Sequence record: KP869113
Length of the DNA: 64,000 nt
Strand: one strand, 5' to 3'
Source: Escherichia coli O157 typing phage 15
Shown piece by piece: positions 1 through 51,232 of the stretch. A model generated the notes under the pieces. That model did no database searches, was not told the origin of the DNA, and was given only the letters and a program-made list of their open reading frames with translations. How positions within the stretch are numbered: the stretch's first letter is position 1; each line of letters starts with the position of its first letter. Position numbers and translations under genes: made by a program.

Positions 1-299
1 TCTCTTCCTAATACATGGTAAGAGAAGTTATAAGCTTTGTTTCTCCAGAGCCATCCAACTCTCTGCATGTAGACACCAAGCTTACCAATCTTTCTAATCT
101 TAGCCCATCGTTTGATATGACCTGCATCACCATCAATTGGGTTGTCATAAGTCTCCATCCATCTGAACCCGAAAGGTAAGTGTCCTTTCTTCTCACTGTA
201 GAATGGAACTACAAAAGGTGCTAAGATAACTGCTAAGATTGCTGCAAATGGCTCTAACAAAGCTAAGAAAATCCATGAAGCATACTTTAAGTATCTCAT
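1..299 (-). CDS. Membrane protein, 3' end runs off window; same gene as 29027..29362
   Basis: ATG at 299..297; hand translation MRYLKYASWIFLALLEPFAAILAVILAPFVV... has an N-terminal hydrophobic helix; window 1-76 is identical to 29286-29362, where the frame continues into ORF 29027..29353. Confidence 0.45.
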   Translation of the reverse strand, partial: MRYLKYASWIFLALLEPFAAILAVILAPFVVPFYSEKKGHLPFGFRWMETYDNPIDGDAGHIKRWAKIRKIGKLGVYMQRVGWLWRNKAYNFSYHVLGR

Positions 300-6795: not shown

Positions 6796-7948
6796 ACACT
6801 ACAAAAGATGGCTGCTCAACACTGAAAGCTTGACCACCACCAACAGAACCAGATGTCCCTGAGTGTGTATGCTCAGAGCTAGAAACAGTAACAGTGCCTG
6901 TATGACTGTGCGAACCAATATTAACAGTGTGGCTGTGAGCACCAATTGCGACAGTATGGCTATGAGCACCAGATGATGCAGTTGTACCTGAGAAGCTATG
7001 GGTGTGAGCACCAGCTAAATCAGTATACATAGCATTACCAACACCAGCATCAGCAGATGCAGTAATAGCGTTTGTGCCACCCCTATCATTACCCCTCATA
7101 GGGACTCTATGGTTGTGGTTACCAGCATTACTTGTTGTGCCACTAAACGTGTGAGTGTGAGCACCAGCACTATTAGTCGTTTTTGTACCGTAATCAAAAG
7201 TTGATGTACTTTTTGAACCATAATCAAAACTAGAGATAGATACACTTGCAGAGTGTGTATGACCACCACCTGTTAGATAGATAGAGTGAGTATGTGCTGG
7301 TAAATTATTATTTGTTAATGCTACAGTCTGAGAACCAAACGTTGAACCAACAGGTCTAGAATCTGTATCATAACCAACTAGTGCTCTACCTTTAGAAACT
7401 AACTCCCAAGTACCTCCACAAAGCAAGTAAGTGGATGGGTTAGCAGAGTTAACAGATAGATGAATAGTCCCTACTGGATATGACGCTTGGATAGCTTTGT
7501 ATAAATTATTAACTGCTTTCGCGGTAGCATACTTATCAGCATCTTCATTGTACAGATTAGATGTTGTCCAGTTCTGAACATTACTTAAACCAACCTGTGC
7601 TTTCGTTGTATTGTGTGGGTTACTTTTGTCGTCAATATGTTGCTGAATTAAGTTATTCACTTCCTCTGACGACATAATTTGTAGATTTGCTCTTGCCTCA
7701 GCAACACTTACAATATCTGACAAGTTATTAGCTGCAACTAATTGAAGAGAGTTAATAACATTATCAAGACCTACTTGTGATTTAGTTACACCATGAGGGT
7801 TATTCCTCAAAGATGCGTGAGGTGCTAACAACTGCTCAAGCGTACATCTTTTATCCTCAACACCTTGCTTAAGGTGGAAGATATCACTCAAATCAACTGG
7901 TAAGGCCGCTTGTGGCAAGGCACTAATTTGAATTTCACCTACTGCCAT
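6773..7948 (-). CDS. Tail fibre protein (391 aa) with fibre repeats, collar-like domain and HxH repeats
   Basis: NPHGVTKSQVGLDNV / NPHNTTKAQVGLSNV repeats; YPVG...LLCGGT collar-like motif; many AHTHS/AHSHT repeats; C-terminus ...YVWQRTA parallels the 871-aa fibre. Confidence 0.7.
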   Translation of the reverse strand: MAVGEIQISALPQAALPVDLSDIFHLKQGVEDKRCTLEQLLAPHASLRNNPHGVTKSQVGLDNVINSLQLVAANNLSDIVSVAEARANLQIMSSEEVNNLIQQHIDDKSNPHNTTKAQVGLSNVQNWTTSNLYNEDADKYATAKAVNNLYKAIQASYPVGTIHLSVNSANPSTYLLCGGTWELVSKGRALVGYDTDSRPVGSTFGSQTVALTNNNLPAHTHSIYLTGGGHTHSASVSISSFDYGSKSTSTFDYGTKTTNSAGAHTHTFSGTTSNAGNHNHRVPMRGNDRGGTNAITASADAGVGNAMYTDLAGAHTHSFSGTTASSGAHSHTVAIGAHSHTVNIGSHSHTGTVTVSSSEHTHSGTSGSVGGGQAFSVEQPSFVVYVWQRTA

Positions 7949-8253: not shown

Positions 8254-9107
8254 TAAGAATTTCCTTCTTGTTGTGATTTATCTTTTCTGCCTTTGACAAT
8301 TTGTGCAACCTCAGCCATGATTCCATATGCACCACCTGCAATAGCTTCTTTACCAGCAATGAAATAGCCACTATTATTAGACCTATCTACAGTCATATAA
8401 TCATCGCTCTGTGGGTTTGCTGTTCTGTCAACCTTAAAGTAACCATCAATAACACCAGCATCTGCAAGACTCCCTACTAGGTTGGACTCCAGAGAGCCAC
8501 CAGTGTTATTTGTTACCAGACCCCTGTTAGCATCAGTTACAAACCAGTTCTCTTTATCATCAACAATAGCAAGTGATGAATCAGCAACCTCTACAGGTGT
8601 CCAAGCAGTCCCATTTAAAGTAACATCTCTTAAGATAACAGCGGAACCAGTGGTTGTTGCAGAAATCTTTGACAGTGTATATGCAGCATCAAGAACGCTT
8701 TTTCTAGTATTAATACGGATAACGATACCACCAGTCTTAGGAGTAATATGCTCAAAAATCTGAGAGAAAGTTGCACCATACAATGTCATAATTGCTTTTT
8801 GCAAGAATGTTGGAGTAGTATCAGAACGTCTTAGGAAGATTTGGATATAAAGCATAGCTCTGTATGTTTCATCATCAGCACCTAAAGGTCTAGGAACTTT
8901 AATCAGTGAGCCAATATTATCAAGTTGTTGACCTACTGACGTCCTGATATTTCTCTCTGTGTGCATCTGCCAGCAAACATCCTCTAGTGTTTGTAGCTCA
9001 TCAGTGATTGCTTTCAAGATACTTGTATAGATAAATTTATCTTTAAACTGTGTTACAGTCCTTTCATCAAGTGTTTTATAATAAACACTATCAATCTTTT
9101 CAAACAT
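8253..9107 (-). CDS. Baseplate wedge protein (gpI / Mu gp48-like), by position
   Basis: 284 aa immediately downstream of the J-like baseplate gene. Confidence 0.45.
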
Positions 9108-29026: not shown

Positions 29027-29362
29027 TTACTTTCTTAGTGGATGAATAAAGAATGCCAACATAACTCTTTCCCTTGAAAATGCTCTTTCTTCTGGGACAA
29101 CACTTTTAAGTTTCCACCCAACATAAATTCTCCAGTAAAATTGTTTACCAAAGATTTTGATTGACGGCACAAAAGCGAATAATCCCCAAGCATTACTGTT
29201 CCACATTAGGAGATAACCAGTCTGATTATCTTCAGGGTTAGAACTTACGTTGATATTACCTTTCCACTTAGTAACATCTTTTACATCTCTTCCTAATACA
29301 TGGTAAGAGAAGTTATAAGCTTTGTTTCTCCAGAGCCATCCAACTCTCTGCATGTAGACACC
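29027..29362 (-). CDS. Membrane protein, 5' part lost in N gap (same gene as window 1..299)
   Basis: ORF 29027..29353 is the C-terminal part; 29286-29362 is identical to window 1-77. Confidence 0.45.
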   Translation of the reverse strand, partial: GVYMQRVGWLWRNKAYNFSYHVLGRDVKDVTKWKGNINVSSNPEDNQTGYLLMWNSNAWGLFAFVPSIKIFGKQFYWRIYVGWKLKSVVPEERAFSRERVMLAFFIHPLRK

Positions 29363-30082
29363 NNNNNNNNNNNNNNNNNNNNNNNNNNNNNNNNNNNNNN
29401 NNNNNNNNNNNNNNNNNNNNNNNNNNNNNNNNNNNNNNNNNNNNNNNNNNNNNNNNNNNNNNNNNNNNNNNNNNNNNNNNNNNNNNNNNNNNNNNNNNNN
29501 NNNNNNNNNNNNNNNNNNNNNNNNNNNNNNNNNNNNNNNNNNNNNNNNNNNNNNNNNNNNNNNNNNNNNNNNNNNNNNNNNNNNNNNNNNNNNNNNNNNN
29601 NNNNNNNNNNNNNNNNNNNNNNNNNNNNNNNNNNNNNNNNNNNNNNNNNNNNNNNNNNNNNNNNNNNNNNNNNNNNNNNNNNNNNNNNNNNNNNNNNNNN
29701 NNNNNNNNNNNNNNNNNNNNNNNNNNNNNNNNNNNNNNNNNNNNNNNNNNNNNNNNNNNNNNNNNNNNNNNNNNNNNNNNNNNNNNNNNNNNNNNNNNNN
29801 NNNNNNNNNNNNNNNNNNNNNNNNNNNNNNNNNNNNNNNNNNNNNNNNNNNNNNNNNNNNNNNNNNNNNNNNNNNNNNNNNNNNNNNNNNNNNNNNNNNN
29901 NNNNNNNNNNNNNNNNNNNNNNNNNNNNNNNNNNNNNNNNNNNNNNNNNNNNNNNNNNNNNNNNNNNNNNNNNNNNNNNNNNNNNNNNNNNNNNNNNNNN
30001 NNNNNNNNNNNNNNNNNNNNNNNNNNNNNNNNNNNNNNNNNNNNNNNNNNNNNNNNNNNNNNNNNNNNNNNNNNNNNNNNNN
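29363..30082. other. Assembly gap (720 N); true content is probably represented by window 77-721
   Basis: N run; flanks 29286-29362 and 30083-30160 match window 1-77 and 722-797. Confidence 0.9.
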
Positions 30083-30151
30083 CTCACTAAAGGACTTGAA
30101 CCTTTTTCTTCATCTTGTAAGGGTGATGTTTTACCATATAAACTAAGCGAG
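30083..30151 (-). tRNA. tRNA-Val (UAC), 3'-truncated duplicate of 716..790
   Basis: Identical to window 722-790; 3' end lies in the gap. Confidence 0.5.
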
Positions 30152-30248
30152 TATGAAAGAGGTCTGAAGTTGTGCCGCTAACTCAACTTCGTGGAATTTG
30201 TTACGGTCTTCAGTTGACTCAAAGCGGTCTTTCACTTGACCTCTGAAT

Positions 30249-43097: not shown

Positions 43098-43646
43098 ATG
43101 GAAAAAGATAACTTAAAAGATGTTGAAGGTAACTATCTAGTCCTTGACTGGAAGGATGTTCGGGAAGCACTCTCCGAAGAAAATCTTGACTGGTTCGAAC
43201 AAATTATCTTTGCAGTACGGCATAACCGAGAAGTTGAAAATGGTAAAGAGCCACTTGAAGGAATCTTTGTAGATAGGTCTTATCCATTCTATGAAGACAC
43301 TTTGCAGAAAGTTAAGATGTACTTTAGACAGAAGAACCGTAAAGTGGTCACTATGGTATCTCTTGGTGGACAGAATATGTCTGTGATGGAAGATATTAAT
43401 CCTAAGAGACCGAGTAAAGGTATCTGTATAAAAATCACAGGACATGAAGAGTATATCTCAGTGGATGACTTTAGTGCATTCTGTAATGGCTCTTGTGTCT
43501 TTAATGGTTTTCACTATGATATCCGAGTGTACCCAATCAAGGGAGATGATATCATGATGCAGGTATTCGATAATAACAACGGCTTTACTCATTTTTATCA
43601 GACAACCAAGTCATCACTAAAAACAGTTCTGGAAACACTGATTTAA
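43098..43646 (+). CDS. Hypothetical protein (about 182 aa)
   Basis: Track ORF 43023..43646 trimmed to the ATG at 43098 to remove overlap with the upstream gene. Confidence 0.4.
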   Translation: MEKDNLKDVEGNYLVLDWKDVREALSEENLDWFEQIIFAVRHNREVENGKEPLEGIFVDRSYPFYEDTLQKVKMYFRQKNRKVVTMVSLGGQNMSVMEDINPKRPSKGICIKITGHEEYISVDDFSAFCNGSCVFNGFHYDIRVYPIKGDDIMMQVFDNNNGFTHFYQTTKSSLKTVLETLI

Positions 43647-43656
43647 AATATCTTAA

Positions 43657-43690
43657 GAGCCTCCTTAATTGGGGGCTTTTTTTAATTTTT
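43657..43690. terminator. Bidirectional terminator at convergence of plus and minus gene blocks
   Basis: AGCCTCC-TTAATT-GGGGGCT followed by TTTTTTT. Confidence 0.6.
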
Positions 43691-43699
43691 ATAAAAATT

Positions 43700-43965
43700 T
43701 TATCGGTTGTTCCAACCTCTGGGTCACCATCATATGTGAATAAAATATCTATCCTTCTTAACAACCTTCTTAATCTTACTCTCTATATATAGTTATATAG
43801 TACTATATAGTGTCTTAGTAACTATCTAGTGGTCTTAATAGCCCCTCTGTATAACCCTTCTAAATAGCCCTCTAAACACTCTTCTAACAAGCCTTCTTAA
43901 CAACCTATACAATCACCTTAACCATCTCTCTATACGCTCTTAGAAGCCTCTATACACCTCACCCC
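43700..43965. repeat. Pyrimidine-rich CTTAACAA-type repeat region; 43881-43957 identical to 898-974
   Basis: Same word family as 898-2733; 77-bp exact match. Confidence 0.6.
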
Positions 43966-44164
43966 AATAATGGTAGTGAGATTCCTCGTTTATGGCTTCT
44001 TTTACGGCATCTTTCCAGAAGTCATCAGTAGGGTTATAATCTGGTATCACCTGCTGAATCAGCATTTTGATAAGGTCAAAGGTATTATCTGTTCCACCGA
44101 TATCGAATTTTGCATCAAGTTGGTGGCAGCCATAAGCATTAACAGTTACGCGGATAGTTGACAT
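43940..44164 (-). CDS. Small early protein (74 aa)
   Basis: ORF immediately downstream of a promoter/hairpin/RBS cassette. Confidence 0.45.
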   Translation of the reverse strand: MSTIRVTVNAYGCHQLDAKFDIGGTDNTFDLIKMLIQQVIPDYNPTDDFWKDAVKEAINEESHYHYWGEVYRGF

Positions 44165-44230
44165 AATTTAGAATCTCCAGTTTAGGACTTTATTTAGTGG
44201 GGAAGGTCATTCCCTCCCCGTTGTTTAGTA
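44165..44230 (-). promoter_or_regulatory. Early-gene leader cassette, family 1
   Basis: Coding-strand consensus CAACGGGGAGGGAATGACCTTCCCCACTAA(G/A)TAAAGTCCTTAAACT(A/G)GAGATTC then ATG. Confidence 0.55.
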
Positions 44231-44232
44231 AT

Positions 44233-44496
44233 TTACTGCATATTGGCGTAGGTTGCAAGCCTTTTTTCGTTGTATTTTGTCAGAATTTCACAAGATAGAA
44301 CATCGTACATTGTAACCGCTTTGCTTTTGTCGAGGTCAAAAAAGCCAAATGCTTTACCATCTTTGAATCCGACAACTTCGTAAGATTCTTTAATGATTTC
44401 ACCATTGAACAAATCACTTTCGATACGGTGAAACAACGCTACGTCTTCTTTGTCAGTTGCAATCTGCAATAGTGTGGTTAATTCTACGTGTTCCAT
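44233..44496 (-). CDS. Small early protein (about 87 aa)
   Basis: Track ORF 44233..44601 trimmed to the ATG at 44496 that directly follows the cassette RBS. Confidence 0.45.
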   Translation of the reverse strand: MEHVELTTLLQIATDKEDVALFHRIESDLFNGEIIKESYEVVGFKDGKAFGFFDLDKSKAVTMYDVLSCEILTKYNEKRLATYANMQ

Positions 44497-44570
44497 TTTT
44501 GAATCTCCTAGTTTAAGGACTTTACTTAGTGGGAAGGTTAATCCCTCCCCGTTGATTGACAATTTACAGA
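44497..44570 (-). promoter_or_regulatory. Early-gene leader cassette, family 1
   Basis: Same consensus; upstream minus strand reads TTGACG-17 nt-TAAATT. Confidence 0.55.
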
Positions 44571-45094
44571 CTTTTGATTGTCTCGTCAATATCTTTTTCA
44601 ATATCTTTTAAAGTTTTTTCTAAGTTCTTGATATTGAAGGATAAGCCTTCACCGAGAGTCTTAGAATAACTGCTAGGACGTAAATCATAAAGGCCAATTT
44701 GTTCTACATTGGAGAGGTTGACCATTTCACCGCTTACATCATAAGCTATTGATACGGTGTTTTCAGGGGCTTTATAGAACTTGTTAAGATTCTTGATAGA
44801 ACGTTCATAAGCCATTTTATAACCATTTAAAAGGTCTTTAACGTGGTTGCGAACGTTTTTACACTCATCTAAGTAAATACCTAAGAATAGCGGTAACAGT
44901 TCTGCTACAGCTTGCATAAAGTGAGATACTACAACAGTAGAAACATTACGACGATGTATATAATAAGCCCCGTTTTCTGATTTAGTGATAGTTGCAAAGT
45001 GTACACCGTTGCAACGAAATTCGAAGGTATCTTTAACGGGTTTAGTCATAACGTTAGATGAGCGAATGTAGTTGATAGCTTGAAACTTGTTCAT
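44564..45094 (-). CDS. Hypothetical early protein (176 aa)
   Basis: ORF following cassette. Confidence 0.45.
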   Translation of the reverse strand: MNKFQAINYIRSSNVMTKPVKDTFEFRCNGVHFATITKSENGAYYIHRRNVSTVVVSHFMQAVAELLPLFLGIYLDECKNVRNHVKDLLNGYKMAYERSIKNLNKFYKAPENTVSIAYDVSGEMVNLSNVEQIGLYDLRPSSYSKTLGEGLSFNIKNLEKTLKDIEKDIDETIKSL

Positions 45095-45165
45095 TTTGAA
45101 TCTCCTAGTTTAAGGACTTTACTTAGTGGGGAAGGTCATTCCCTCCCCGTTGATTAGTACTATAC
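45095..45165 (-). promoter_or_regulatory. Early-gene leader cassette, family 1
   Basis: Same consensus; minus strand reads TTGCAA..TATAGT upstream of hairpin. Confidence 0.55.
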
Positions 45166-45315
45166 TTGTTTTGATTTGCCTTTGCAAGCAATTTTTTAAG
45201 TTTATCTATAAAGAATCTATTAAGTGAATCCCTTTTAGATAACCCCCTCGAACAAAGTTACCAATGTCAATGGGTATTGTCAACACTTTTTTAAAAGTTT
45301 TTTGTAAGTTATTGA

Positions 45316-45657
45316 TTAACTTATGAAGATTTTTTCAGGCTTTACATAGCTGATACGCTGACTTTTTAGCAGGTCATCCCAGATTAAAGCGGCAATATGT
45401 GCATAACCGGATTCACGTAAAAGCTTCATTGTTTTACTTCTCGTTTCAAAACGGCTTGCGTAGTATTCACTGTTCAAGGTCGTTTTATTCCCTTCGTTAT
45501 CTGTATGGATGATTTGCATCACTTGAAAGGGGCTTACACCCTCGCCTTTGTTCCACTGTTCAAAGTATTTTAGGCACTGCATAGGTGACATCTTATCACT
45601 TACTTGAGTTGACCAAGATGAGCCAGCTTTATCGGTAATTACGGTTACATAAGCCAT
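45316..45657 (-). CDS. Hypothetical early protein (113 aa)
   Basis: ORF following family-2 cassette. Confidence 0.45.
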   Translation of the reverse strand: MAYVTVITDKAGSSWSTQVSDKMSPMQCLKYFEQWNKGEGVSPFQVMQIIHTDNEGNKTTLNSEYYASRFETRSKTMKLLRESGYAHIAALIWDDLLKSQRISYVKPEKIFIS

Positions 45658-45742
45658 TTTAGAATCTCCAGTTTAGGATTGAGTGGTAAAGCTCTTTATC
45701 TGGGGCTTACTATACAGACTAATAAGCCCCATGTAAAGTACT
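45658..45742 (-). promoter_or_regulatory. Early-gene leader cassette, family 2
   Basis: Coding-strand palindrome GGGGCTTA-N13-TAAGCCCC, then AGATAAAGAGCTTTACCACTCAATCCTAAACTGGAGATTC and ATG. Confidence 0.55.
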
Positions 45743-45991
45743 TTAAGCGTCTTTATATTCTATCTCTGTGCACTCACCTTTTACTAGCTCAAAGGTCCAA
45801 ATAATTCGTTTATACTCAATCACTACTACAGTAACAAGGTCAGTCCTCTTCTCATTGGTTTTAAAGTCTATTGTGTGGGTATACTCATAACTAGTCTTAT
45901 CCTTAATTTCCCCGTAGCGTCTACACTCTTTATAGACTTCATCCATTAAGCCATTGCTAACCATGTTTTTTAGTTGAGTTTTAGTATACAT
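45743..45991 (-). CDS. Small early protein (82 aa)
   Basis: ORF following cassette. Confidence 0.45.
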   Translation of the reverse strand: MYTKTQLKNMVSNGLMDEVYKECRRYGEIKDKTSYEYTHTIDFKTNEKRTDLVTVVVIEYKRIIWTFELVKGECTEIEYKDA

Positions 45992-46084
45992 TTTTTGGAA
46001 TCTCCTAGTTTAAGGACTTTACTTAGTGGGGAAGGTCATTCCCTCCCCGTTGATTGATAATTTACAGACTTTTATCAGGCTTGT
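45992..46084 (-). promoter_or_regulatory. Early-gene leader cassette, family 1
   Basis: Consensus plus upstream TAGACA..TAAATT promoter-like hexamers. Confidence 0.55.
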
Positions 46085-46318
46085 CTAGTCTTTTTCAATG
46101 ATAATTTCATATTGACCATCGACACTGTCGAAATAGATTCCTTCGTCATCTTCTGTCTTAAAGTAACATTGTATATCATCACTGGCGGGGTAGTCTTGTC
46201 TTGCTATCTGGCAAACTTGAATAGCATTTTCTTTACTTCCTGTAAACTCTTCAAGCCCTTTAAAGTCACATGAATGGCCGTTACAAATGGAAAGGATGAG
46301 ATAAATGGTTGTAAGCAT
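46085..46318 (-). CDS. Small secreted protein (77 aa)
   Basis: N-terminal signal-like hydrophobic segment MLTTIYLILSICNG; several Cys. Confidence 0.4.
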   Translation of the reverse strand: MLTTIYLILSICNGHSCDFKGLEEFTGSKENAIQVCQIARQDYPASDDIQCYFKTEDDEGIYFDSVDGQYEIIIEKD

Positions 46319-46324
46319 GATTTA

Positions 46325-46370
46325 AGCCCTCTAAAAGCCCCTGTAAGGGGTTAATCAGTGTTTATAAGGT
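46325..46370 (-). terminator. Hairpin terminator after gene 46385..46927
   Basis: Minus-strand CCCCTTACAGGGG followed by CTTTTAG. Confidence 0.4.
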
Positions 46371-46384
46371 GAATGTATAGGTTT

Positions 46385-46927
46385 TTAGAAAAAGACCTTT
46401 AAATCACTCTCTACAATGTTTTCTGTCAGTGTATCCATGATGTCACAAAAAACCTGAATACTGTCGGATTGTTGGATACTTTTAGCAAGTAGCTCCAATG
46501 TTTCATCAAGATAATTTAAATTTGGGTTATCCAGTGAAGGGAGACAAAAAGGTGAATACATAGCGTTGAACTCTGTTGTATAGACCTTTTTAATCCAATT
46601 TACATCAAAGTACTCTGTAAAGCTTGCTATATTTGACATGTTATCACAAGAATAATCATCATTTAGCTCATCCTCTGGAATGTCAAGTTCTAAGATAACA
46701 ATATTTTGAGTTTTCATCTGAAAAGCTGCCGTGATAGTGGCATTTCCTAGAGCTTGCTGGATACCTTCCGATGCTATCTCTTCCTCATCATCACCATAGA
46801 GTTTATTTTCTGGGTACACGTAAAAATTGCCGTCCATATCCGAACAATTCCATACACCTGATGGTTTATCACCGTTATTAATCAGGTTGATAAAGTTTTC
46901 TTGAGTAGTACCGTGAAAGCATTTCAT
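46385..46927 (-). CDS. Hypothetical protein (180 aa) with N-terminal HGT motif (speculative ADP-ribosyltransferase or 2'-phosphotransferase-like)
   Basis: MKCFHGTT at N-terminus, aromatic-rich segment NFYVYPENKLYG, acidic central region; motif-level resemblance only. Confidence 0.4.
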   Translation of the reverse strand: MKCFHGTTQENFINLINNGDKPSGVWNCSDMDGNFYVYPENKLYGDDEEEIASEGIQQALGNATITAAFQMKTQNIVILELDIPEDELNDDYSCDNMSNIASFTEYFDVNWIKKVYTTEFNAMYSPFCLPSLDNPNLNYLDETLELLAKSIQQSDSIQVFCDIMDTLTENIVESDLKVFF

Positions 46928-47020
46928 TTTGAATCTCCTAGTTTAAGGATTTAGTGGTAAAGCTCTTTATCTGGGGCTTACTTTATCGAACTATAAGCCC
47001 CTTGTAAAGTACTTTATCAG
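46928..47020 (-). promoter_or_regulatory. Early-gene leader cassette, family 2
   Basis: GGGGCTTA..TAAGCCCC palindrome plus conserved RBS segment. Confidence 0.55.
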
Positions 47021-47218
47021 TTAATTTTTGACAACTTTTAAAACTGCAAGATAACCTAAGCAATAAGAATCACCGAAGAGAGTTCTACCCATGAAAGAAT
47101 CATCTTTGATATCCTTTGCAGTGACTGTTTTTTCTACGCCGTGGGAAAGAACTACATCACCAACTTTAATGTCTTTGATGTGCGTGGTTTCAATGGTTAA
47201 ACCGTTGATAATAGCCAT
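47021..47218 (-). CDS. Small early protein (65 aa)
   Basis: ORF following cassette. Confidence 0.4.
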   Translation of the reverse strand: MAIINGLTIETTHIKDIKVGDVVLSHGVEKTVTAKDIKDDSFMGRTLFGDSYCLGYLAVLKVVKN

Positions 47219-47319
47219 TTTGAATCTCCTAGTTTAAGGACTTTACTTAGTGGGGAAGGTCATTCCCTCCCCGTTGATGTGTAATTTAATCTATCTAAAA
47301 ATCAGTGTCAATAAAATTT
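47219..47319 (-). promoter_or_regulatory. Early-gene leader cassette, family 1
   Basis: Consensus hairpin plus RBS. Confidence 0.55.
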
Positions 47320-47724
47320 TTAGAGTTCTGCATAAATTGCGTCGCAGATGTCACGAAAGTCATGATTTGCCAAATTACGTTGTAACCAAGTGGCAAAGAA
47401 ATCAGCGATTGCAAAATTAGCATCATACTCAACAGATAGCCACACTTTCACGGCAAATCTAAACATTTTCAAGTCTAACTCTTTATTCATTACCTTAGAT
47501 TTGCCTAACATGTCGACCATTTCATATTGTGCACCGTCTAGCGTGATACCTGCTGCAACGTCAGCCAATGAGTTTTTTACGTTTTCAACGTCTAAGATAA
47601 CGCTTTGAATCTTTCCGATAATGTTGTGCAATGTTTCATCCGGTGCTGATGATGTAATAACATTGATTCGATTAACGGTTAAACGTGCTTTTAAGATTGA
47701 CAACTCACGATTATTAATAGCCAT
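47320..47724 (-). CDS. Hypothetical early protein (134 aa)
   Basis: ORF following cassette. Confidence 0.45.
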   Translation of the reverse strand: MAINNRELSILKARLTVNRINVITSSAPDETLHNIIGKIQSVILDVENVKNSLADVAAGITLDGAQYEMVDMLGKSKVMNKELDLKMFRFAVKVWLSVEYDANFAIADFFATWLQRNLANHDFRDICDAIYAEL

Positions 47725-47809
47725 TTTAGAATCTCCAATTTAGGATTGAGTGGTAAAGCTCTTTATCTGGGGCTTACTGTACAGACTAATAAGCCCCCTG
47801 TAAAGTACT
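47725..47809 (-). promoter_or_regulatory. Early-gene leader cassette, family 2
   Basis: Palindrome GGGGCTTA..TAAGCCCC; TTTACA-17 nt-TACAGT overlaps the palindrome. Confidence 0.55.
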
Positions 47810-48082
47810 TTATACTAAATGCAGTTTTTTACCTTTTACTATGATGTAACTTGATGTGCTATTGCTACATACATCCTGATAAATTCTGCGCAAACGTCCT
47901 TCATAGTATACTTTCCAGCTAGTTGGAATCTTTTTGCCGTATCCGGTAGCAGTTTTTTGGAGTCCTGCGACTTGCCAATCTAAGATATGTTGCTCAGCCT
48001 GTAAATCCTCAAAGTGCATCACACCGTCTACATAGTGACGTAGAGTGACATTTAAAGTGCGACCGTTGTTAGTAGTATACAT
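47810..48082 (-). CDS. Small early protein (90 aa)
   Basis: ORF following cassette. Confidence 0.45.
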   Translation of the reverse strand: MYTTNNGRTLNVTLRHYVDGVMHFEDLQAEQHILDWQVAGLQKTATGYGKKIPTSWKVYYEGRLRRIYQDVCSNSTSSYIIVKGKKLHLV

Positions 48083-48171
48083 TTTAGAATCTCCTAGTTT
48101 AAGGACTTTATTTAGTGGGGTGTTTATTGCCTCCCCGTTGATGTGTAATTTAATCTATCTAAAAATCAGTG
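48083..48171 (-). promoter_or_regulatory. Early-gene leader cassette, family 1 variant
   Basis: Variant hairpin GGGGAGGCAATAAACACCCC with conserved RBS segment. Confidence 0.5.
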
Positions 48172-48504
48172 TCAACAGTTTTGTTTTCGTTTGCTCAACT
48201 CTTGAACAATTACAGTATGATAGTCTTTTAAGTCACTAATATTTAAAGCATTTATCAGAGAATTATAATCATCGACTAATTGAAAATCATCTTTGAAAAT
48301 GTCGCTGATTTGATAAGTTCTCGCCCTGAATCTGAAGCTCATTTCTAACCGCTTTAATTGTTCATCGCTCAACCGCTCTAGAAAGCTCATTACAAGGCTA
48401 TTGCTAACCTGTTGTGTGATTGCCTTATTTGCTAGATTATAGGCTTTATATGCCTTATAGAGCGCGAAAATGGCAATGATTGCAGTGATACCAGTCATTA
48501 ACAT
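48172..48504 (-). CDS. Small membrane-anchored protein (110 aa)
   Basis: N-terminal hydrophobic helix MLMTGITAIIAIFALYKAY. Confidence 0.4.
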   Translation of the reverse strand: MLMTGITAIIAIFALYKAYKAYNLANKAITQQVSNSLVMSFLERLSDEQLKRLEMSFRFRARTYQISDIFKDDFQLVDDYNSLINALNISDLKDYHTVIVQELSKRKQNC

Positions 48505-48794
48505 GGTGCTTCCTCTTTACGTGATACTTTGCCATTTACAGTTATCTCATAAGAATCTAGTAAATCGCTTTTAGATTTGACAGGACTTTTAAGAGTATCA
48601 TCATAGATATTAACTTGCAATACAGGTTTTTTATACTCCCTGCAACTATTCCATAAGCAAATCACTACACGACGACCTTTTATTTTGCCGTGTAACCATT
48701 CCATAACATCATGGCTATTTCTTGATGTTTCAATGAAATCAATTTTGTTGAGTAATTTGCTTAGATTTTCACGAACTTTATTTGATAATTTCAT
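48498..48794 (-). CDS. Hypothetical early protein (98 aa)
   Basis: ORF following cassette. Confidence 0.45.
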   Translation of the reverse strand: MKLSNKVRENLSKLLNKIDFIETSRNSHDVMEWLHGKIKGRRVVICLWNSCREYKKPVLQVNIYDDTLKSPVKSKSDLLDSYEITVNGKVSRKEEAPC

Positions 48795-48882
48795 TTTTGA
48801 ATCTCCAGTTTAGGATTGAGTGGTAAAGCTCTTTATCTGGGGCTTAAGATACCAACTTTTAAGCCCCTTGTAAAGTACTTTA
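48795..48882 (-). promoter_or_regulatory. Early-gene leader cassette, family 2
   Basis: Palindrome plus RBS segment. Confidence 0.55.
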
Positions 48883-49173
48883 TCAGTTAATTTTCAGCTT
48901 TGCATAACCTCTCATTGTACGAATTGGAGATGTTAAGGCTACGCGTCTAATATATGCCTTTTTCGTGTATACATTTGTCTTTCCGATAGTGTTTACACAT
49001 GTAAAAAGATTTATTGGTGAATTTTTTAACTTCAACTGTTTATCAGCCTTCACACCCCATCTTACAGCAGATTGTTTTCCGTTGTCAACCACTTTCCCGC
49101 CTAACTTTTTCGCCATGATGCGAGCGTCATCACGAGTTTTTACAGGAATTACAACGTTTTTGATAGTAGCCAT
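48883..49173 (-). CDS. Small basic protein (96 aa)
   Basis: ORF following cassette. Confidence 0.45.
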   Translation of the reverse strand: MATIKNVVIPVKTRDDARIMAKKLGGKVVDNGKQSAVRWGVKADKQLKLKNSPINLFTCVNTIGKTNVYTKKAYIRRVALTSPIRTMRGYAKLKIN

Positions 49174-49261
49174 TTTTGAATCTCCAATTTAGGATTTAGT
49201 GGTAAAGCTCTTTATCTGGGGCTTACTTTATCGAACTATAAGCCCCTTGTAAAGTACTTTA
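49174..49261 (-). promoter_or_regulatory. Early-gene leader cassette, family 2
   Basis: Palindrome plus RBS segment. Confidence 0.55.
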
Positions 49262-49642
49262 TCAGTTAATTTTGAAGATTGTTACATAACCATCACTACC
49301 GATTATTTGAGACACTCCAGCTTTTTCTACTTGATAGCCCATATTTTCAAGATGATAAACAGCATCATCGTAACCATATGCGCCACCCTGATAACGTCTC
49401 TTATCGCATCTTATCAGGTTTTTACCACGTCCAGCAAGTGCATGTAAAATGGCTTTTTCACTTGAAAGAGTACCATCTAGCATTGTCGCCGTGTAATGGT
49501 TAATTTTATTCCCATTGATATCATACTTAAAATTAAACGAGTGAACAACAATAACGTTACCTTTAAAATTCTCATCAAGTGACTTCTCCAGTGCGTTGCG
49601 AAAGTTGTCTTTGTTGATGAATTTAGGTGCACGATATGCCAT
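49262..49642 (-). CDS. Hypothetical early protein (126 aa)
   Basis: ORF following cassette. Confidence 0.45.
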   Translation of the reverse strand: MAYRAPKFINKDNFRNALEKSLDENFKGNVIVVHSFNFKYDINGNKINHYTATMLDGTLSSEKAILHALAGRGKNLIRCDKRRYQGGAYGYDDAVYHLENMGYQVEKAGVSQIIGSDGYVTIFKIN

Positions 49643-49733
49643 TTTTGAATCTCCTAGTTTAAGGGTTGATTTGGTAAAGCTCTTTATCTGGGGCTTAAGA
49701 TATCAGCTTTTAAGCCCCTTGTAAAGTACTTTA
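49643..49733 (-). promoter_or_regulatory. Early-gene leader cassette, family 2
   Basis: Palindrome plus RBS segment. Confidence 0.55.
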
Positions 49734-49940
49734 TTAGGCATCGTAGTAATAAACTGCTGTCTGTCTTATGTACTTTCTTGTATTTCTTGTAAGGTAGCAA
49801 TTAGAGTTTATAGCTGTTTCTACATAGTTGCAATAGTCAGCCTCTGATATTCTAGACCATGCGCCACATACTTGCATGTAAAAACGTTTTACCTTTGTGT
49901 TAACGTTAGTTGTAACCATCAATTCACGACTATAAAGCAT
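49734..49940 (-). CDS. Small early protein (68 aa)
   Basis: First ORF of the small-gene array, preceded by a cassette-like RBS segment. Confidence 0.4.
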   Translation of the reverse strand: MLYSRELMVTTNVNTKVKRFYMQVCGAWSRISEADYCNYVETAINSNCYLTRNTRKYIRQTAVYYYDA

Positions 49941-50138
49941 TTTCGATTCTCCAGTTTAGGAAGTGGGCTTGCTTGCCCGTCTGATGCAAATAGTACGTAA
50001 ACTTGTTTGGCGTGTCAACGGTTTTTATTAAATATTTTTTGTAAGGTTGGGAAATGAACGGGCGCGCACGACTACCACAAAACAGAACACAAATCAAGAA
50101 TTATTTTTCAACCCGCTACAAATTTTTCTCTTGACTTT

Positions 50139-50175
50139 TGGGGAGAGGTGGAGTAAGAGGGGGAGAGGGGTTGGT
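50139..50175. other. Purine (G)-rich tract GGGGAGAGGTGGAGTAAGAGGGGGAGAGGGGTTGG
   Basis: Conspicuous G-run cluster in an otherwise AT-rich non-coding region. Confidence 0.6.
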
Positions 50176-50194
50176 CTGGCTCTCTATAAAAACC

Positions 50195-50385
50195 TACCTG
50201 CACGATTCTAAAATGATTTTTCTTGCCCGACCTGAGCGGGGTCTGCACGTTTTGAAAATGAAAAAGCTCTTTGGAGATTACCTGCACAGTTTGAAAATGA
50301 ATTTTCTCTTTGGAGTTCAAAATTCTCTCTACAGATTTCTCTACAGAACTCTACCTGCACAATCCTGAAATGAAAAAGCCCTCCT
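50195..50385. repeat. Four direct iteron-like repeats (C)CTGCAC-N2-(T/C)-N3-TGAAA(A)TGA(A/T)
   Basis: Copies at about 50195, 50243, 50280 and 50354 inside a 500-bp non-coding region. Confidence 0.55.
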
Positions 50386-50446
50386 TACCTGAAAAATTTA
50401 CCAGATAAAGAAGGCTTAGTCTATTGTGAATATTATACAGAGTTTC

Positions 50447-51232
50447 TTAGTTCTTTGCGTCTAAGAAGGTAACTTCTGGTGAAGAGAAGACCGTCTCGAT
50501 ATCCTCATCAGTTCTTGCATAAATATATGTATCTGCATCACTGCCAAATGTTACGGCTATCCTGTGATTGCTCTTCGACAGGTGGGTAACTAGAGCGTTA
50601 CTTAGAGACATCTTCTCAACCGGAGGGTTACTTTGATGTATCTTACCTTTTCTTCGTCTGAAGAGGGTAACTGTATCATCTTTGAACGTTACTACACCTG
50701 CAAAGTATTCTGGTTCACAGTAGTTATTCCAACCTGAGCGTAACTTGTGGTACATCTCTCCTTCGTAGACATACAGATAAACATCTACACTCTTCATCAC
50801 CTGATTAATGATAACTGTGACGGCTTGAGGGTCAAGTCCACCGATACCTGCACCAATCATAGGTAAACCAACCTTCTTCAACTGATTAACTTCACAGTAT
50901 CTGTTAAGCTGTTTCAAAGATGACTCTAAAGCACTGTATCGGGCATCTTTACCAGTCTTAAGCTGAGTGTAAAGGTTAGCTATACGACCTTGTTTTAAAC
51001 GTGCTACAGAGAAATTACCCAGTAAATTTTCACAGGGTTTGTGTCCTATACCACCTGCATACAGATAAACTTCTGTATCGGTCTCATATGCTTTTGGGTA
51101 AAGTTTAGAAATCTTGTCAGCGATACCTGCACCCATTAAATTCATACAGTTGCAACCGTGACCGATGATGTCAAACTTACCTTTATCAAATGCGGCAAAG
51201 ATATCACCATTAATTATTTTTACAATACCCAT
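50447..51232 (-). CDS. Macro-domain protein (TARG1/OARD1-like ADP-ribose-processing family), 261 aa
   Basis: N-terminal NGDIF...IIGHGCNCMNLMGAGIA and internal GLPMIGAGIGGL resemble the GDLF...HCIS.D..MGAGIA and P.IGCGLD motifs of TARG1-type macrodomains (from memory). Confidence 0.55.
   Translation of the reverse strand: MGIVKIINGDIFAAFDKGKFDIIGHGCNCMNLMGAGIADKISKLYPKAYETDTEVYLYAGGIGHKPCENLLGNFSVARLKQGRIANLYTQLKTGKDARYSALESSLKQLNRYCEVNQLKKVGLPMIGAGIGGLDPQAVTVIINQVMKSVDVYLYVYEGEMYHKLRSGWNNYCEPEYFAGVVTFKDDTVTLFRRRKGKIHQSNPPVEKMSLSNALVTHLSKSNHRIAVTFGSDADTYIYARTDEDIETVFSSPEVTFLDAKN

Follow-up and report, generated by a model that had tools for sequence, protein, structure and literature searches.

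In this O157 typing phage, 12 of 15 consecutive small genes are preceded by a repeated cassette. We consider it likely that each cassette is a self-contained module for early expression and recombination of its gene, and that the two cassette families differ in placement and role of a hairpin. The window, i.e. the whole analysed stretch of 64 kb, comes from a Felixounavirus and is 99.9% identical to typing phage 1 of E. coli O157.

Profile HMMs derived from the cassette copies and run against the window recovered 12 full-length cassettes, six of family 1 (E-values 1e-27 to 5e-32, n=6) and six of family 2 (1e-28 to 5e-33, n=6). All of them map to minus-strand positions 44162-49754, with none elsewhere in the 64 kb; repeat finding and self-BLAST of the window also recovered both families. 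The HMM matches coincide with the cassette limits given below, except that they end at 48081, 45994, 44495 and 44165 in four family 1 copies and at 46927 in one family 2 copy. The copies are near-identical, about 85-110 bp long, and each has the ATG of a minus-strand ORF as its 3´ limit (12/12). From 5´ to 3´ they carry an A-rich tract, sigma70-type -35 and -10 hexamers separated by 17 bp, a G/C hairpin, a leader that is conserved, then SD and ATG. The RBS segment AAACT(A)GGAGATTCnAAAATG is common to both families. The 15 genes of the array are mutually unrelated; their proteins (n=15) match no Pfam family, and among PHROGs only families of unknown function. The features, all on the minus strand, are as follows.

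50376..50417, minus strand: canonical intrinsic terminator (17-bp stem and T-run), which is Felix O1 terminator t13; lies shortly before the array and closes an operon upstream that has no cassettes
50018-49990, minus strand: array entry promoter TTGACA-17-TACTAT, separate from the 12 cassettes
49957-49945, minus strand: thirteenth copy, consisting only of the RBS part of the 3´ segment (AAACTGGAGAATC); precedes the first small gene (49940-49734)
43940..49940, minus strand: small-gene array, 15 genes of 65-180 aa, 12 with a cassette in front
49640..49754, minus strand: family 2, 126-aa gene; -35 TTTACA 49725-49720, -10 TATCTT 49702-49697, hairpin 49718-49690, ATG 49642-49640
49171..49278, minus strand: family 2, 96-aa gene; -35 49253-49248, -10 TAAAGT 49230-49225, hairpin 49246-49218, SD 49185-49182, ATG 49173-49171
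48792..48901, minus strand: family 2, 98-aa gene; -35 48874-48869, -10 TATCTT 48851-48846, hairpin 48867-48839, ATG 48794-48792; extended hairpin of ~20 bp when folded as read-through RNA
47722..47825, minus strand: family 2, 134-aa gene; -35 47804-47799, -10 TACAGT 47781-47776, hairpin 47797-47769, ATG 47724-47722
46925..47034, minus strand: family 2, 180-aa gene; -35 47008-47003, -10 TAAAGT 46985-46980, hairpin 47001-46973, ATG 46927-46925
45655..45764, minus strand: family 2, 113-aa gene; -35 45737-45732, -10 TATAGT 45714-45709, hairpin 45730-45702, ATG 45657-45655
48080..48190, minus strand: family 1, 90-aa gene; -35 TTGACA 48175-48170 (contains the TGA stop codon of the upstream gene), -10 TAAATT 48152-48147, decayed hairpin 48136-48117, ATG 48082-48080
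47216..47327, minus strand: family 1, 65-aa gene; -35 TTGACA 47311-47306, -10 TAAATT 47288-47283, hairpin GGGGAGGGAATGACCTTCCCC 47272-47252, ATG 47218-47216
45989..46103, minus strand: family 1, 82-aa gene; -35 TAGACA 46087-46082 (the TAG ends the preceding ORF), -10 TAAATT 46064-46059, hairpin 46048-46028, ATG 45991-45989
45092..45202, minus strand: family 1, 176-aa gene; -35 TTGCAA 45187-45182, -10 TATAGT 45164-45159, hairpin 45148-45128, ATG 45094-45092
44494..44604, minus strand: family 1, 87-aa gene; -35 TTGACG 44589-44584 (still within the preceding ORF), -10 TAAATT 44566-44561 (the TAA ends that ORF), hairpin 44550-44531, ATG 44496-44494
44162..44274, minus strand: family 1, last (74-aa) gene; -35 TTGCAA 44258-44253, -10 TAAATT 44235-44230 (the TAA ends the preceding ORF), hairpin 44219-44199, ATG 44164-44162

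The sequence-only reading had claimed at least 12 such copies at 44165-49735, a hairpin in one family, a palindrome with variable centre in the other, and a shared RBS segment. All of this holds except the start of the span, as the first cassette begins already at about 49754 and the separate entry promoter lies further upstream. The family 1 hairpin is perfect in four of six copies, one base short at 44550-44531 and decayed at 48136-48117. The family 2 palindrome, GGGGCTTA-N13-TAAGCCCC, is found in 6/6 copies of the window.

The cassettes probably carry working promoters. Spacing between -35 and -10 is 17 bp in all 12, with A-rich sequence upstream of the -35. A consensus promoter scan recovers 11 of them; the twelfth, TTGCAA-17-TAAATT at 44258-44230, was read directly from the sequence. 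Across related genomes, each of 40 family 1 copies has a TTGACA-like hexamer, a 17-nt spacer and TAAATT, TAAAGT, TATAGT, TAATAT or TAGTAT, and this pattern is held although the -35 often falls within the end of the preceding gene's coding sequence, which is unrelated. Likewise, TTTACA-N17-TAnnnT is present in 50/50 family 2 copies from nine genomes. The literature we searched contains no transcript 5´ ends, reporter or RNA-decay data for any Felix O1-type phage. RT-PCR of Felix O1 placed the peak of ORFs 16, 20, 21 and 22 at 5 min; ORFs 17, 19 and 23, likewise cassette-driven, were placed at 25 min, so that not every cassette-driven gene behaves as immediate-early.

Hexamers resembling sigma70 sites had been noted just upstream of the palindrome or overlapping it. 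They are there in all 12 cassettes, and the overlap in family 2 is greater than was thought: the arms flank the -10, which lies inside the variable centre, i.e. in the loop. In a set of 38 distinct 46-nt cores, nothing within or at the edge of this 13-nt centre is invariant except T25, A26 and T30, which correspond to -12, -11 and -7. Such an arrangement might be that of a DNA operator, where binding of a dimeric phage or host protein to the dyad would either activate the promoters or shut them off early. The dyad has the -10 at its centre and covers the polymerase-binding region, its arms are conserved around a variable centre, a symmetric two-arm change in Erwinia phages would also suit co-evolution with a protein, and Erwinia phage Prophecy has a third, different palindrome again around the -10. 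We nevertheless find an operator quite improbable. Asymmetries between the arms are nearly all transitions after which the sense strand, but not the other, can still pair by G·U (UG in 16 of the 38 cores at one pair and in 28 of 31 sequences at a pair of the extended structure), and departures of the A·C type do not occur; this is the pattern expected of RNA pairing, not of a double-stranded half-site. Further, no DNA-binding domain could be recognised in any of the 15 array proteins, and the family 1 promoters of the same array have no dyad over them.

The stems themselves are maintained through compensatory changes. In the family 2 core, 99.7% of cells are paired, and none of 500 shuffles matches the observed pairing score. 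Pair 3 changes from GC to UA in Erwinia phages, and the extended structure (98.8% paired) adds another compensatory change, again from GC to UA, in 4 sequences, though probably few evolutionary events stand behind these changes. Wherever only one arm of the core has changed, the sense strand keeps a G·U pair (16 UG, 1 GU and 2 GU), which points to a role at the RNA level. Folds are stronger for sense than for antisense, -12.4 vs -10.1 kcal/mol in family 2 and -12.2 vs -9.6 kcal/mol in family 1, and fold z-scores of cassettes are -2.6 to -3.6. In family 1, 21 of 22 distinct hairpins fold stably, and one-base losses are coordinated between both arms. Classical intrinsic termination by these hairpins is unlikely, because neither family has a U-run after the hairpin and none scored as terminator-like in the terminator listing of the window.

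If the family 2 hairpin acts as RNA, it might be a processing site of RNase III type: the read-through inverted repeat of ~57 nt would be cut as between T7 early genes, splitting the cistrons, and the upstream message would keep a hairpin that protects its 3´ end. The modelled read-through fold is an interrupted helix of ~20 bp, made of 6+5+9 bp and an internal loop of 3x3 (MFE -24.6 kcal/mol, z -3.56; 0/200 shuffles fold equally well), and the 3´ side of this loop is where the cassette's own transcript is predicted to start. RNAalifold finds the lower stems retained over 31 distinct copies with one compensatory pair, but these stems are made up of the -35 region and of the region transcribed first, conserved for other reasons. 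With a helix at the short end of the range for RNase III, no extension in the third (Erwinia) family or in family 1, and no matching Rfam family, we regard such processing as unlikely.

Cassettes were found across the Ounavirinae (about 250-290 phage records). We compared the window phage with eight related genomes, and the modular gene shuffling proposed earlier is supported. In the gene-order table, differences in gene content are without exception whole gene-plus-cassette units, which are inserted, deleted, duplicated or replaced. One orthologue has a family 1 cassette in some genomes and a family 2 cassette in others. Michonne carries a 427-bp tandem duplication of one unit, 100% identical, and a deletion junction was located within the RBS segment that the families share. 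Cassettes make up 24.8% of the array and contain 42 of 45 BLAST alignment breakpoints, although these counts are not independent across genomes and BLAST alignments tend to stop within shared repeats anyway.

A sceptic could hold that strong promoter/RBS units are homogenised by gene conversion and that the palindromes are functionless, merely hitch-hiking or promoting recombination. Copies within a genome are indeed closer than orthologous coding sequence, as in concerted evolution, and one gene was retained when its hairpin decayed; the loss in this window copy means that the family 1 hairpin is not indispensable. However, compensatory and wobble changes keep the pairing in four genera, three unrelated arm sequences hold the same position relative to the -10, and RB49 shows the same design. 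Lack of function is thus very hard to believe.

The module we favour builds on what is directly visible, namely anatomy, conservation pattern, strand-specific pairing and breakpoints at cassettes; from these we infer promoter activity, start sites and hairpin function. Each cassette would supply an A-rich UP-like tract, a sigma70 promoter for host RNA polymerase, an RNA-acting hairpin, a leader, a strong SD and the ATG. The family 1 hairpin starts 10 nt after the -10 and thus about 2-4 nt past the predicted start site, near the 5´ end of the cassette's own mRNA, where it most likely shields the message from 5´-end-dependent decay. In family 2, the -10 lies in the loop between the arms, so transcripts from its own promoter lack the hairpin. 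It would arise solely in read-through RNA from the upstream gene. There it would most likely attenuate read-through, serve as a processing site, or cap the upstream message at its 3´ end; attenuation is suggested by analogy with RB49. Because the cassettes are near-identical and share the 3´ RBS segment, they also offer portable homology for recombination, which would move gene-plus-cassette units. Related phages gain, lose and swap small early genes at cassettes, and nearly every such gene of this phage has one.

For family 1, a close parallel exists in the 5´-terminal stem-loop mRNA stabilisers of E. coli, reportedly described by Emory, Bouvet and Belasco in 1992 for the ompA 5´ UTR. As in those, the family 1 hairpin is a stem rich in stable G/C pairs (-12 to -15 kcal/mol for family 1), predicted to start some 2-4 nt behind the 5´ end, with an unstructured leader and the SD after it; unlike there, the family 1 start site is predicted and the hairpin is also internal in read-through RNA. 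The read-through fold of family 2 recalls the hairpins that RNase III processes in the early region of phage T7, between genes; Dunn and Studier are said to have described these in 1983. Both are intercistronic interrupted helices (~20 bp here) between consecutive small early genes read by host polymerase. Unlike in T7, the element embeds a promoter for each gene, the helix is shorter and cleavage is putative.

The same sequences are known as direct repeats of Felix O1 (Whichard et al. 2010, PMC3185647) and as DR_n features of the wV8 GenBank record. The 57-bp repeat CTTTACATGGGGCTTA...CTTTACCACT of Felix O1 is the family 2 core and its 39-bp repeat TTGACACTGG...ACACATCAAC a family 1 promoter. 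There they were reported as repeats only, with no promoter, hairpin or recombination role, and the cassette promoters are absent from the promoter list of that study (PMC3185647). The organisation has already been described for T4-type phages, but apparently not for the Felix O1 group. Promoter-early stem-loop cassettes (PeSLs) occur in RB49/phi1, T4/PST and KVP40/nt-1 (Arbiol et al. 2010, PMC2839356; Comeau et al. 2014, PMC4122927); in RB49, promoter and terminator (stem-loop) activity was measured and mini-circles were shown (PMC2839356; PMC4122927), whereas such activities of the cassettes here are putative. The sequence-only reading had pointed to PeSLs, and every feature of them that can be read from sequence is present: a sigma70 consensus promoter downstream of an AT-rich tract, a stem-loop in which a G-run faces a C-run and G·T pairs occur, SD and ATG, dense clustering before ORFans, indels and replacements that end at cassettes, and crossovers between -10 and ATG. 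In RB49 ORF204, the -10 (TAAGAT) even lies in the loop with the right arm immediately after, as in family 2. The hairpin of most RB49 PeSLs lies within the 17-bp spacer, whereas in family 1 it is downstream of the predicted start site and in family 2 it encloses the -10 and extends over -35 and +1 to +17. Homology to RB49 PeSLs is not significant (nhmmer E 0.016 and 0.14), and only a short RBS string is common to both. The likeness is therefore one of architecture and behaviour, found here in a different phage subfamily, in an Ounavirinae myovirus of about 88 kb.

Twelve of the 15 small minus-strand genes of the array are preceded by a full copy of a repeated cassette. The cassettes fall into two families of six copies each, and every copy ends at the ATG of its gene. 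Minus-strand reading, regular expressions, repeat finding, self-BLAST and a whole-window profile search all agree on the copies. Two such families had been proposed from sequence alone, with at least 12 copies before consecutive small genes; the count is now exactly 12 full copies within 5.6 kb, and the profile search found no full copy elsewhere in the 64 kb. The 6 kb around the array are 99.9% identical to and collinear with Escherichia coli O157 typing phage 1 (KP869100) and 99.6% identical to wV8, both members of Felixounavirus, subfamily Ounavirinae. The array is set between a cassette-free block and a convergent plus-strand unit, which its 3´ end faces.

Features of the array and its upstream flank
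50447-51232, minus strand: macro-domain phosphatase gene, last gene of a tightly packed cassette-free block
50417-50376, minus strand: canonical terminator after the phosphatase gene, equal to Felix O1 t13
50018-49990, minus strand: promoter between the terminator and the first small gene
49957-49945, minus strand: RBS-only copy of the shared segment, before a thirteenth gene, the first small one of the array
49940 to 43940, minus strand: the 15 small genes, downstream of the promoter at 50018-49990

The 15 array proteins are mutually unrelated by protein clustering. None of them has a Pfam family match or a recognised DNA-binding domain, and their PHROG matches are solely to families of unknown function; these searches thus pointed to neither a regulator nor a function. 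Against Rfam, with E<=1 as threshold, 43400-50700 yielded two chance matches, neither of them on a cassette.

Two other places in the array deserve mention. Between the 113-aa and 176-aa genes there is a 221-nt gap without ORF (45095-45315, minus strand), which carries an additional consensus-like promoter, TTGACA-17-TAACTT, upstream of a family 1 cassette; a gap of similar length recurs in every Felixounavirus locus compared and could hold a small RNA or a regulatory region. Just 3´ of the 180-aa gene, CCCCTTACAGGGG forms a small hairpin that resembles a terminator and continues into CTTTT (46350-46333, minus strand); it precedes the 77-aa gene, the sole mid-array gene without a cassette.

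All 12 window cassettes contain sigma70-type hexamers, as the sequence-only reading had supposed, which form a consensus promoter with -35 and -10 about 17 bp apart, and a Shine-Dalgarno GGAG or AGGAG 7-10 nt 5´ of the ATG; a consensus promoter scan lists 11 of the 12. The promoter pattern extends to all 50 family 2 and all 40 family 1 copies collected from nine genomes, those with the family 2 copies spanning four genera. Directly 5´ of the -35, both family alignments have an AT-rich tract of A-runs (GAAAAAG, TAAAAAT, TGATAAAG), and stop codons of upstream genes lie in or adjoin the promoter hexamers.

Family 2 aligns as (stop)TAAAGTAC-TTTACA-a-GGGGCTTA-N8-TAnnn-TAAGCCCC-AGATAAAGAGCTTTACC-N-CCTAAACTGGAGATTCAAAAATG. 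Counting from TTTACA over the 17-nt spacer leads to TATCTT, TAAAGT, TACAGT or TATAGT, and thus places the -10 inside what had been described as the variable centre of a palindrome. The hexamers had been thought to sit just upstream of the palindrome or to overlap it; their closeness holds, and the relation goes beyond mere overlap, the final T of the -10 being the first base of the right palindrome arm. Within the 13-nt centre and its edge, the sole invariant columns among 38 distinct 46-nt cores are T25, A26 and T30, which correspond to -12, -11 and -7 of the promoter, the positions most needed by sigma70. A resemblance of GGGGCTTA to the MotA box of T4 middle promoters was considered and dropped, because every copy has a good -35, TTTACA, with the correct spacing of 17 bp.

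Family 1 consists of an A-tract, a TTGACA-like hexamer, N17, TAAATT (or TATAGT etc.), 10 nt (ACTAATCAAC), GGGGAGGGAATGACCTTCCCC and ACTAAGTAAAGTCCTTAAACTAGGAGATTCAAAATG. The repeat proper begins near the -10; farther upstream the sequence differs between copies, and in several of them it is the coding end of the preceding gene, whose stop codon forms part of a promoter hexamer in four window copies. Despite this divergence, a -35-like hexamer is found at exactly 17 nt in 40 of 40 copies. Anything but promoter function would hardly explain such fixed spacing in divergent sequence.

Each family has its own hairpin, with cassette stem-loop energies of -10 to -16 kcal/mol and with stem pairing maintained through compensatory and wobble changes. 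In family 2 the stem GGGGCTTA/TAAGCCCC encloses the -10, and 99.7% of cells in the core stem are paired. At pair 3, most copies have GC and those of Erwinia phages have UA; one-sided variation, seen at three pairs, is always by G·U. The flanks pair as well (AAAGTAC-CTTTA with TAAAG-AGCTTT, by RNAalifold and pair counts), so that the whole forms an imperfect inverted repeat of ~57 nt, from about -44 to +17. This extended repeat is 98.8% paired; a second pair with compensatory change occurs in it, and 28 of 31 sequences have U·G at one pair. Read-through RNA of family 2 folds at -24.6 kcal/mol (z -3.56), with ~20 bp and a 3x3 loop predicted and kept in 31 copies. An RNase III processing site, for comparison, has about two turns of interrupted duplex RNA with an internal loop. 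The family 1 stem, GGGGAGGG/CCTTCCCC, lies 10 nt 3´ of the -10; 21 of its 22 distinct hairpin versions are stable, one-base losses are coordinated in both arms and a G·U pair is constant. Alignment of all copies, proposed earlier as a check, thus yields fixed promoter spacing and conserved pairing in both families.

What molecule the pairing serves can be approached through its strand preference. Both families fold better on the sense than on the antisense strand, a G·U on the former being an A·C on the latter. This asymmetry argues for pairing that would take place in RNA or in a non-template single strand; a cruciform, or a protein site in double-stranded DNA, is disfavoured by it. For an operator, family 2 does offer a dyad, and its asymmetries are of the G·U type and on one strand only. 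Intrinsic (Rho-independent) termination was also weighed and rejected, because the hairpins of both families are without a following U-run (tails AGAUAAAGAG in family 2 and ACUAAGUAAAG in family 1). The list of terminator-like hairpins holds none of the cassette hairpins, though it includes the terminator at 50417-50376.

The usual distance from a -10 to the transcription start is 6-8 nt. In family 2, transcripts would start at about the A of CCCC-A-GATAAAG, and the hairpin would then be present solely in RNA arriving from upstream. In family 1 the hairpin begins 10 nt after the -10 hexamer in 40 of 40 copies, so that initiation 6-8 nt after the -10 would put it at about +2 to +4. A hairpin 2-4 nt from the 5´ end is the geometry of known 5´-terminal stabilisers. 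We infer start sites and hairpin placement in each RNA from these distances.

A more far-reaching proposal, which we consider improbable, combines two ideas. The first is dual use of family 2. As DNA, the ~57-bp imperfect inverted repeat may carry the -10 of a sigma70 promoter as its loop; in read-through RNA, the same repeat may form a hairpin that attenuates or is of RNase III type. If transcripts are cleaved or terminated at this hairpin, the 5´ end of the downstream message may coincide with that made by promoter initiation, and each gene would then have a uniform monocistronic mRNA regardless of the promoter used. The second idea is that the cassette design, with a near-identical RBS string, may be common to unrelated phage families infecting the same hosts, in which case they could act as a currency for gene exchange between families.

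Exchange of genes at the cassettes is apparent among relatives. We called genes in nine loci, clustered their proteins and compared gene order. The cassette-free upstream block is constant, and array differences comprise whole units in every case. A 170-aa gene is present in some loci and absent in others, presence of the 82-aa and 87-aa genes varies, one slot holds alternative genes in different loci, and two orthologues carry a family 2 cassette in some genomes and a family 1 cassette in others. BLAST breakpoints fall in cassettes in 42 of 45 cases versus 24.8% expected from array coverage (binomial p about 2e-22, a value which overstates independence because events are common to several genomes and alignments tend to end in repeats). 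Where the 82-aa gene is deleted, the junction falls inside the ~20-nt shared RBS segment. In the Citrobacter phage Michonne locus (L003), one cassette and its 85-aa gene are duplicated as a 427-bp, 100% identical tandem copy (7011-7437 and 7441-7867), either by very recent unequal crossover between cassettes or as an assembly artefact.

Searches with the family 2 cassette matched 1380 places in 288 phage records, of Felixounavirus, Mooglevirus, Suspvirus and Erwinia phages; those with family 1 matched 1234 places in 247 records. In Erwinia phage Prophecy (L005), family 2 is present with changed arms, and a third family consists of TTGCAA/CTTTACA, then GGGGTTAcggttatgaGACTATAACCCC, then gtcgaaacaaacaaccc, then the RBS, upstream of genes at 8720, 11217 and 11619. 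Its palindrome differs in sequence and again brackets a -10-like hexamer. An IMG/VR scan for CTTTACA-N29-31-GATAAAGAG gave at least 120 matches, mostly single chance ones among the matches listed, from which filtering retained extra Ounavirinae variants; a scan for the RBS string AACT-N0-1-GGAGAWTCAAAA likewise gave at least 120, again mostly single chance ones among those listed.

Some records call for caution. A Felix O1-type cassette is found in MG065664 (Campylobacter phage A132) at 70606-70693, with 88.6% identity over 85% of the query, and another in one Staphylococcus-labelled phage record; both records, whose labels name phages of unrelated hosts, may be contaminated, chimeric or mislabelled. 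The window itself contains duplicates of exactly 77 nt and 100% identity, five pairs in all, located in 1-2600, 29286-30159 and 43882-43958.

Pairs of 77-nt duplicates in the window
1-77 = 29286-29362
721-797 = 30083-30159
898-974 = 43882-43958
1349-1425 = 1526-1602
1831-1907 = 2008-2084

These look like k=77 assembly-graph joins, and the window start may be mis-joined; the array region is unaffected, since it is collinear with KP869100. The tRNA-Arg, Leu and Val genes at 556-790 duplicate part of the tRNA cluster, and 898-2600 matches the non-coding stretch of KP869100 directly adjoining the last array gene. Within it, non-coding repeats at 177-bp spacing (1349-1633 and 1831-2084), rich in TCTTAACAG-like motifs, lie in a stretch that corresponds to the ~1.6 kb unannotated region beside the array in KP869100; this stretch could serve as an origin, in packaging or as a terminal repeat.

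Felix O1-type phages are widely used in Salmonella and E. coli typing, biocontrol and therapy. If the cassettes are early promoters, they define an early regulon of ~12 promoters per genome in roughly 250-290 sequenced relatives, explain why no part of these genomes is as mosaic as the "hypothetical protein" block beside the macro-domain phosphatase gene, and offer engineers compact modules for strong expression as well as safe points for insertion. In the Felix O1 paper, 57-bp and 39-bp units were given as direct repeats and omitted from the promoter list, and temporal regulation of transcription was stated to be unknown (PMC3185647). RT-PCR of Felix O1 gave peaks at 5 min for ORFs 16, 20, 21 and 22; for ORFs 17, 19 and 23 the time was 25 min. 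The wV8 record annotates the units as DR features; the wV8 genome paper mentions neither repeats nor promoters, and the Felixounavirus comparative paper and the Sf14 tRNA paper are silent on these repeats. Literature searches turned up neither a mapping of transcripts in phages of the Felix O1 type nor a paper interpreting the repeats or linking them to the promoter-early stem-loop cassettes (PeSLs) of T4-type phages.

PeSLs combine a sigma70 promoter and an AT-rich tract with a Shine-Dalgarno sequence, ATG and a stem-loop with G-run/C-run arms, which takes any of five positions relative to the promoter; they occur in clusters ahead of ORFans in hyperplastic regions and delimit indels, and their promoter and terminator activity and mini-circles have been demonstrated (PMC2839356, PMC4122927). 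The likeness noticed at first sight is borne out on all of these architectural points: the present cassettes share the parts, cluster in a variable region before small ORFan genes, and bound insertions, deletions and replacements between relatives. Read directly, the PeSLs of the RB49 hyperplastic region have the same design, and one subclass (ORF192, ORF204) has its -10 in the loop, like family 2. Unlike PeSLs, the cassettes reside in a Felixounavirus genome, not a T4-type one, and profile searches (nhmmer) in both directions with RB49 PeSLs gave non-significant E values of 0.016 and 0.14. The papers on PeSLs group those of different T4-type phages by architecture (PMC2839356, PMC4122927), so missing sequence homology bears on lineage and not on mechanism. 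A short RBS string, AACTGGAGAATCAAAAATG, is common to RB49 ORF193 and the SUSP1/Michonne cassettes. The leader of RB49 ORF207 (caatcattGGGAGGGGtaatactCTCCCAc) is similar to the hairpin of family 1 with its flanks. Such likenesses of RB49 leaders, below profile-search significance, may reflect convergence or ancient exchange.

Taken together, the cassettes are a PeSL-type system in a second, unrelated phage lineage, with predicted promoter and hairpin functions. To the first description, the alignments add a -10 placed in the putative loop, an inverted repeat longer than the core palindrome, strand-specific predicted pairing and a third family in Erwinia phages. PeSL-type modular shuffling is thereby extended beyond T4-type phages, which suggests that virulent enterobacterial phages have a general solution for trying out small genes of host takeover or anti-defence.
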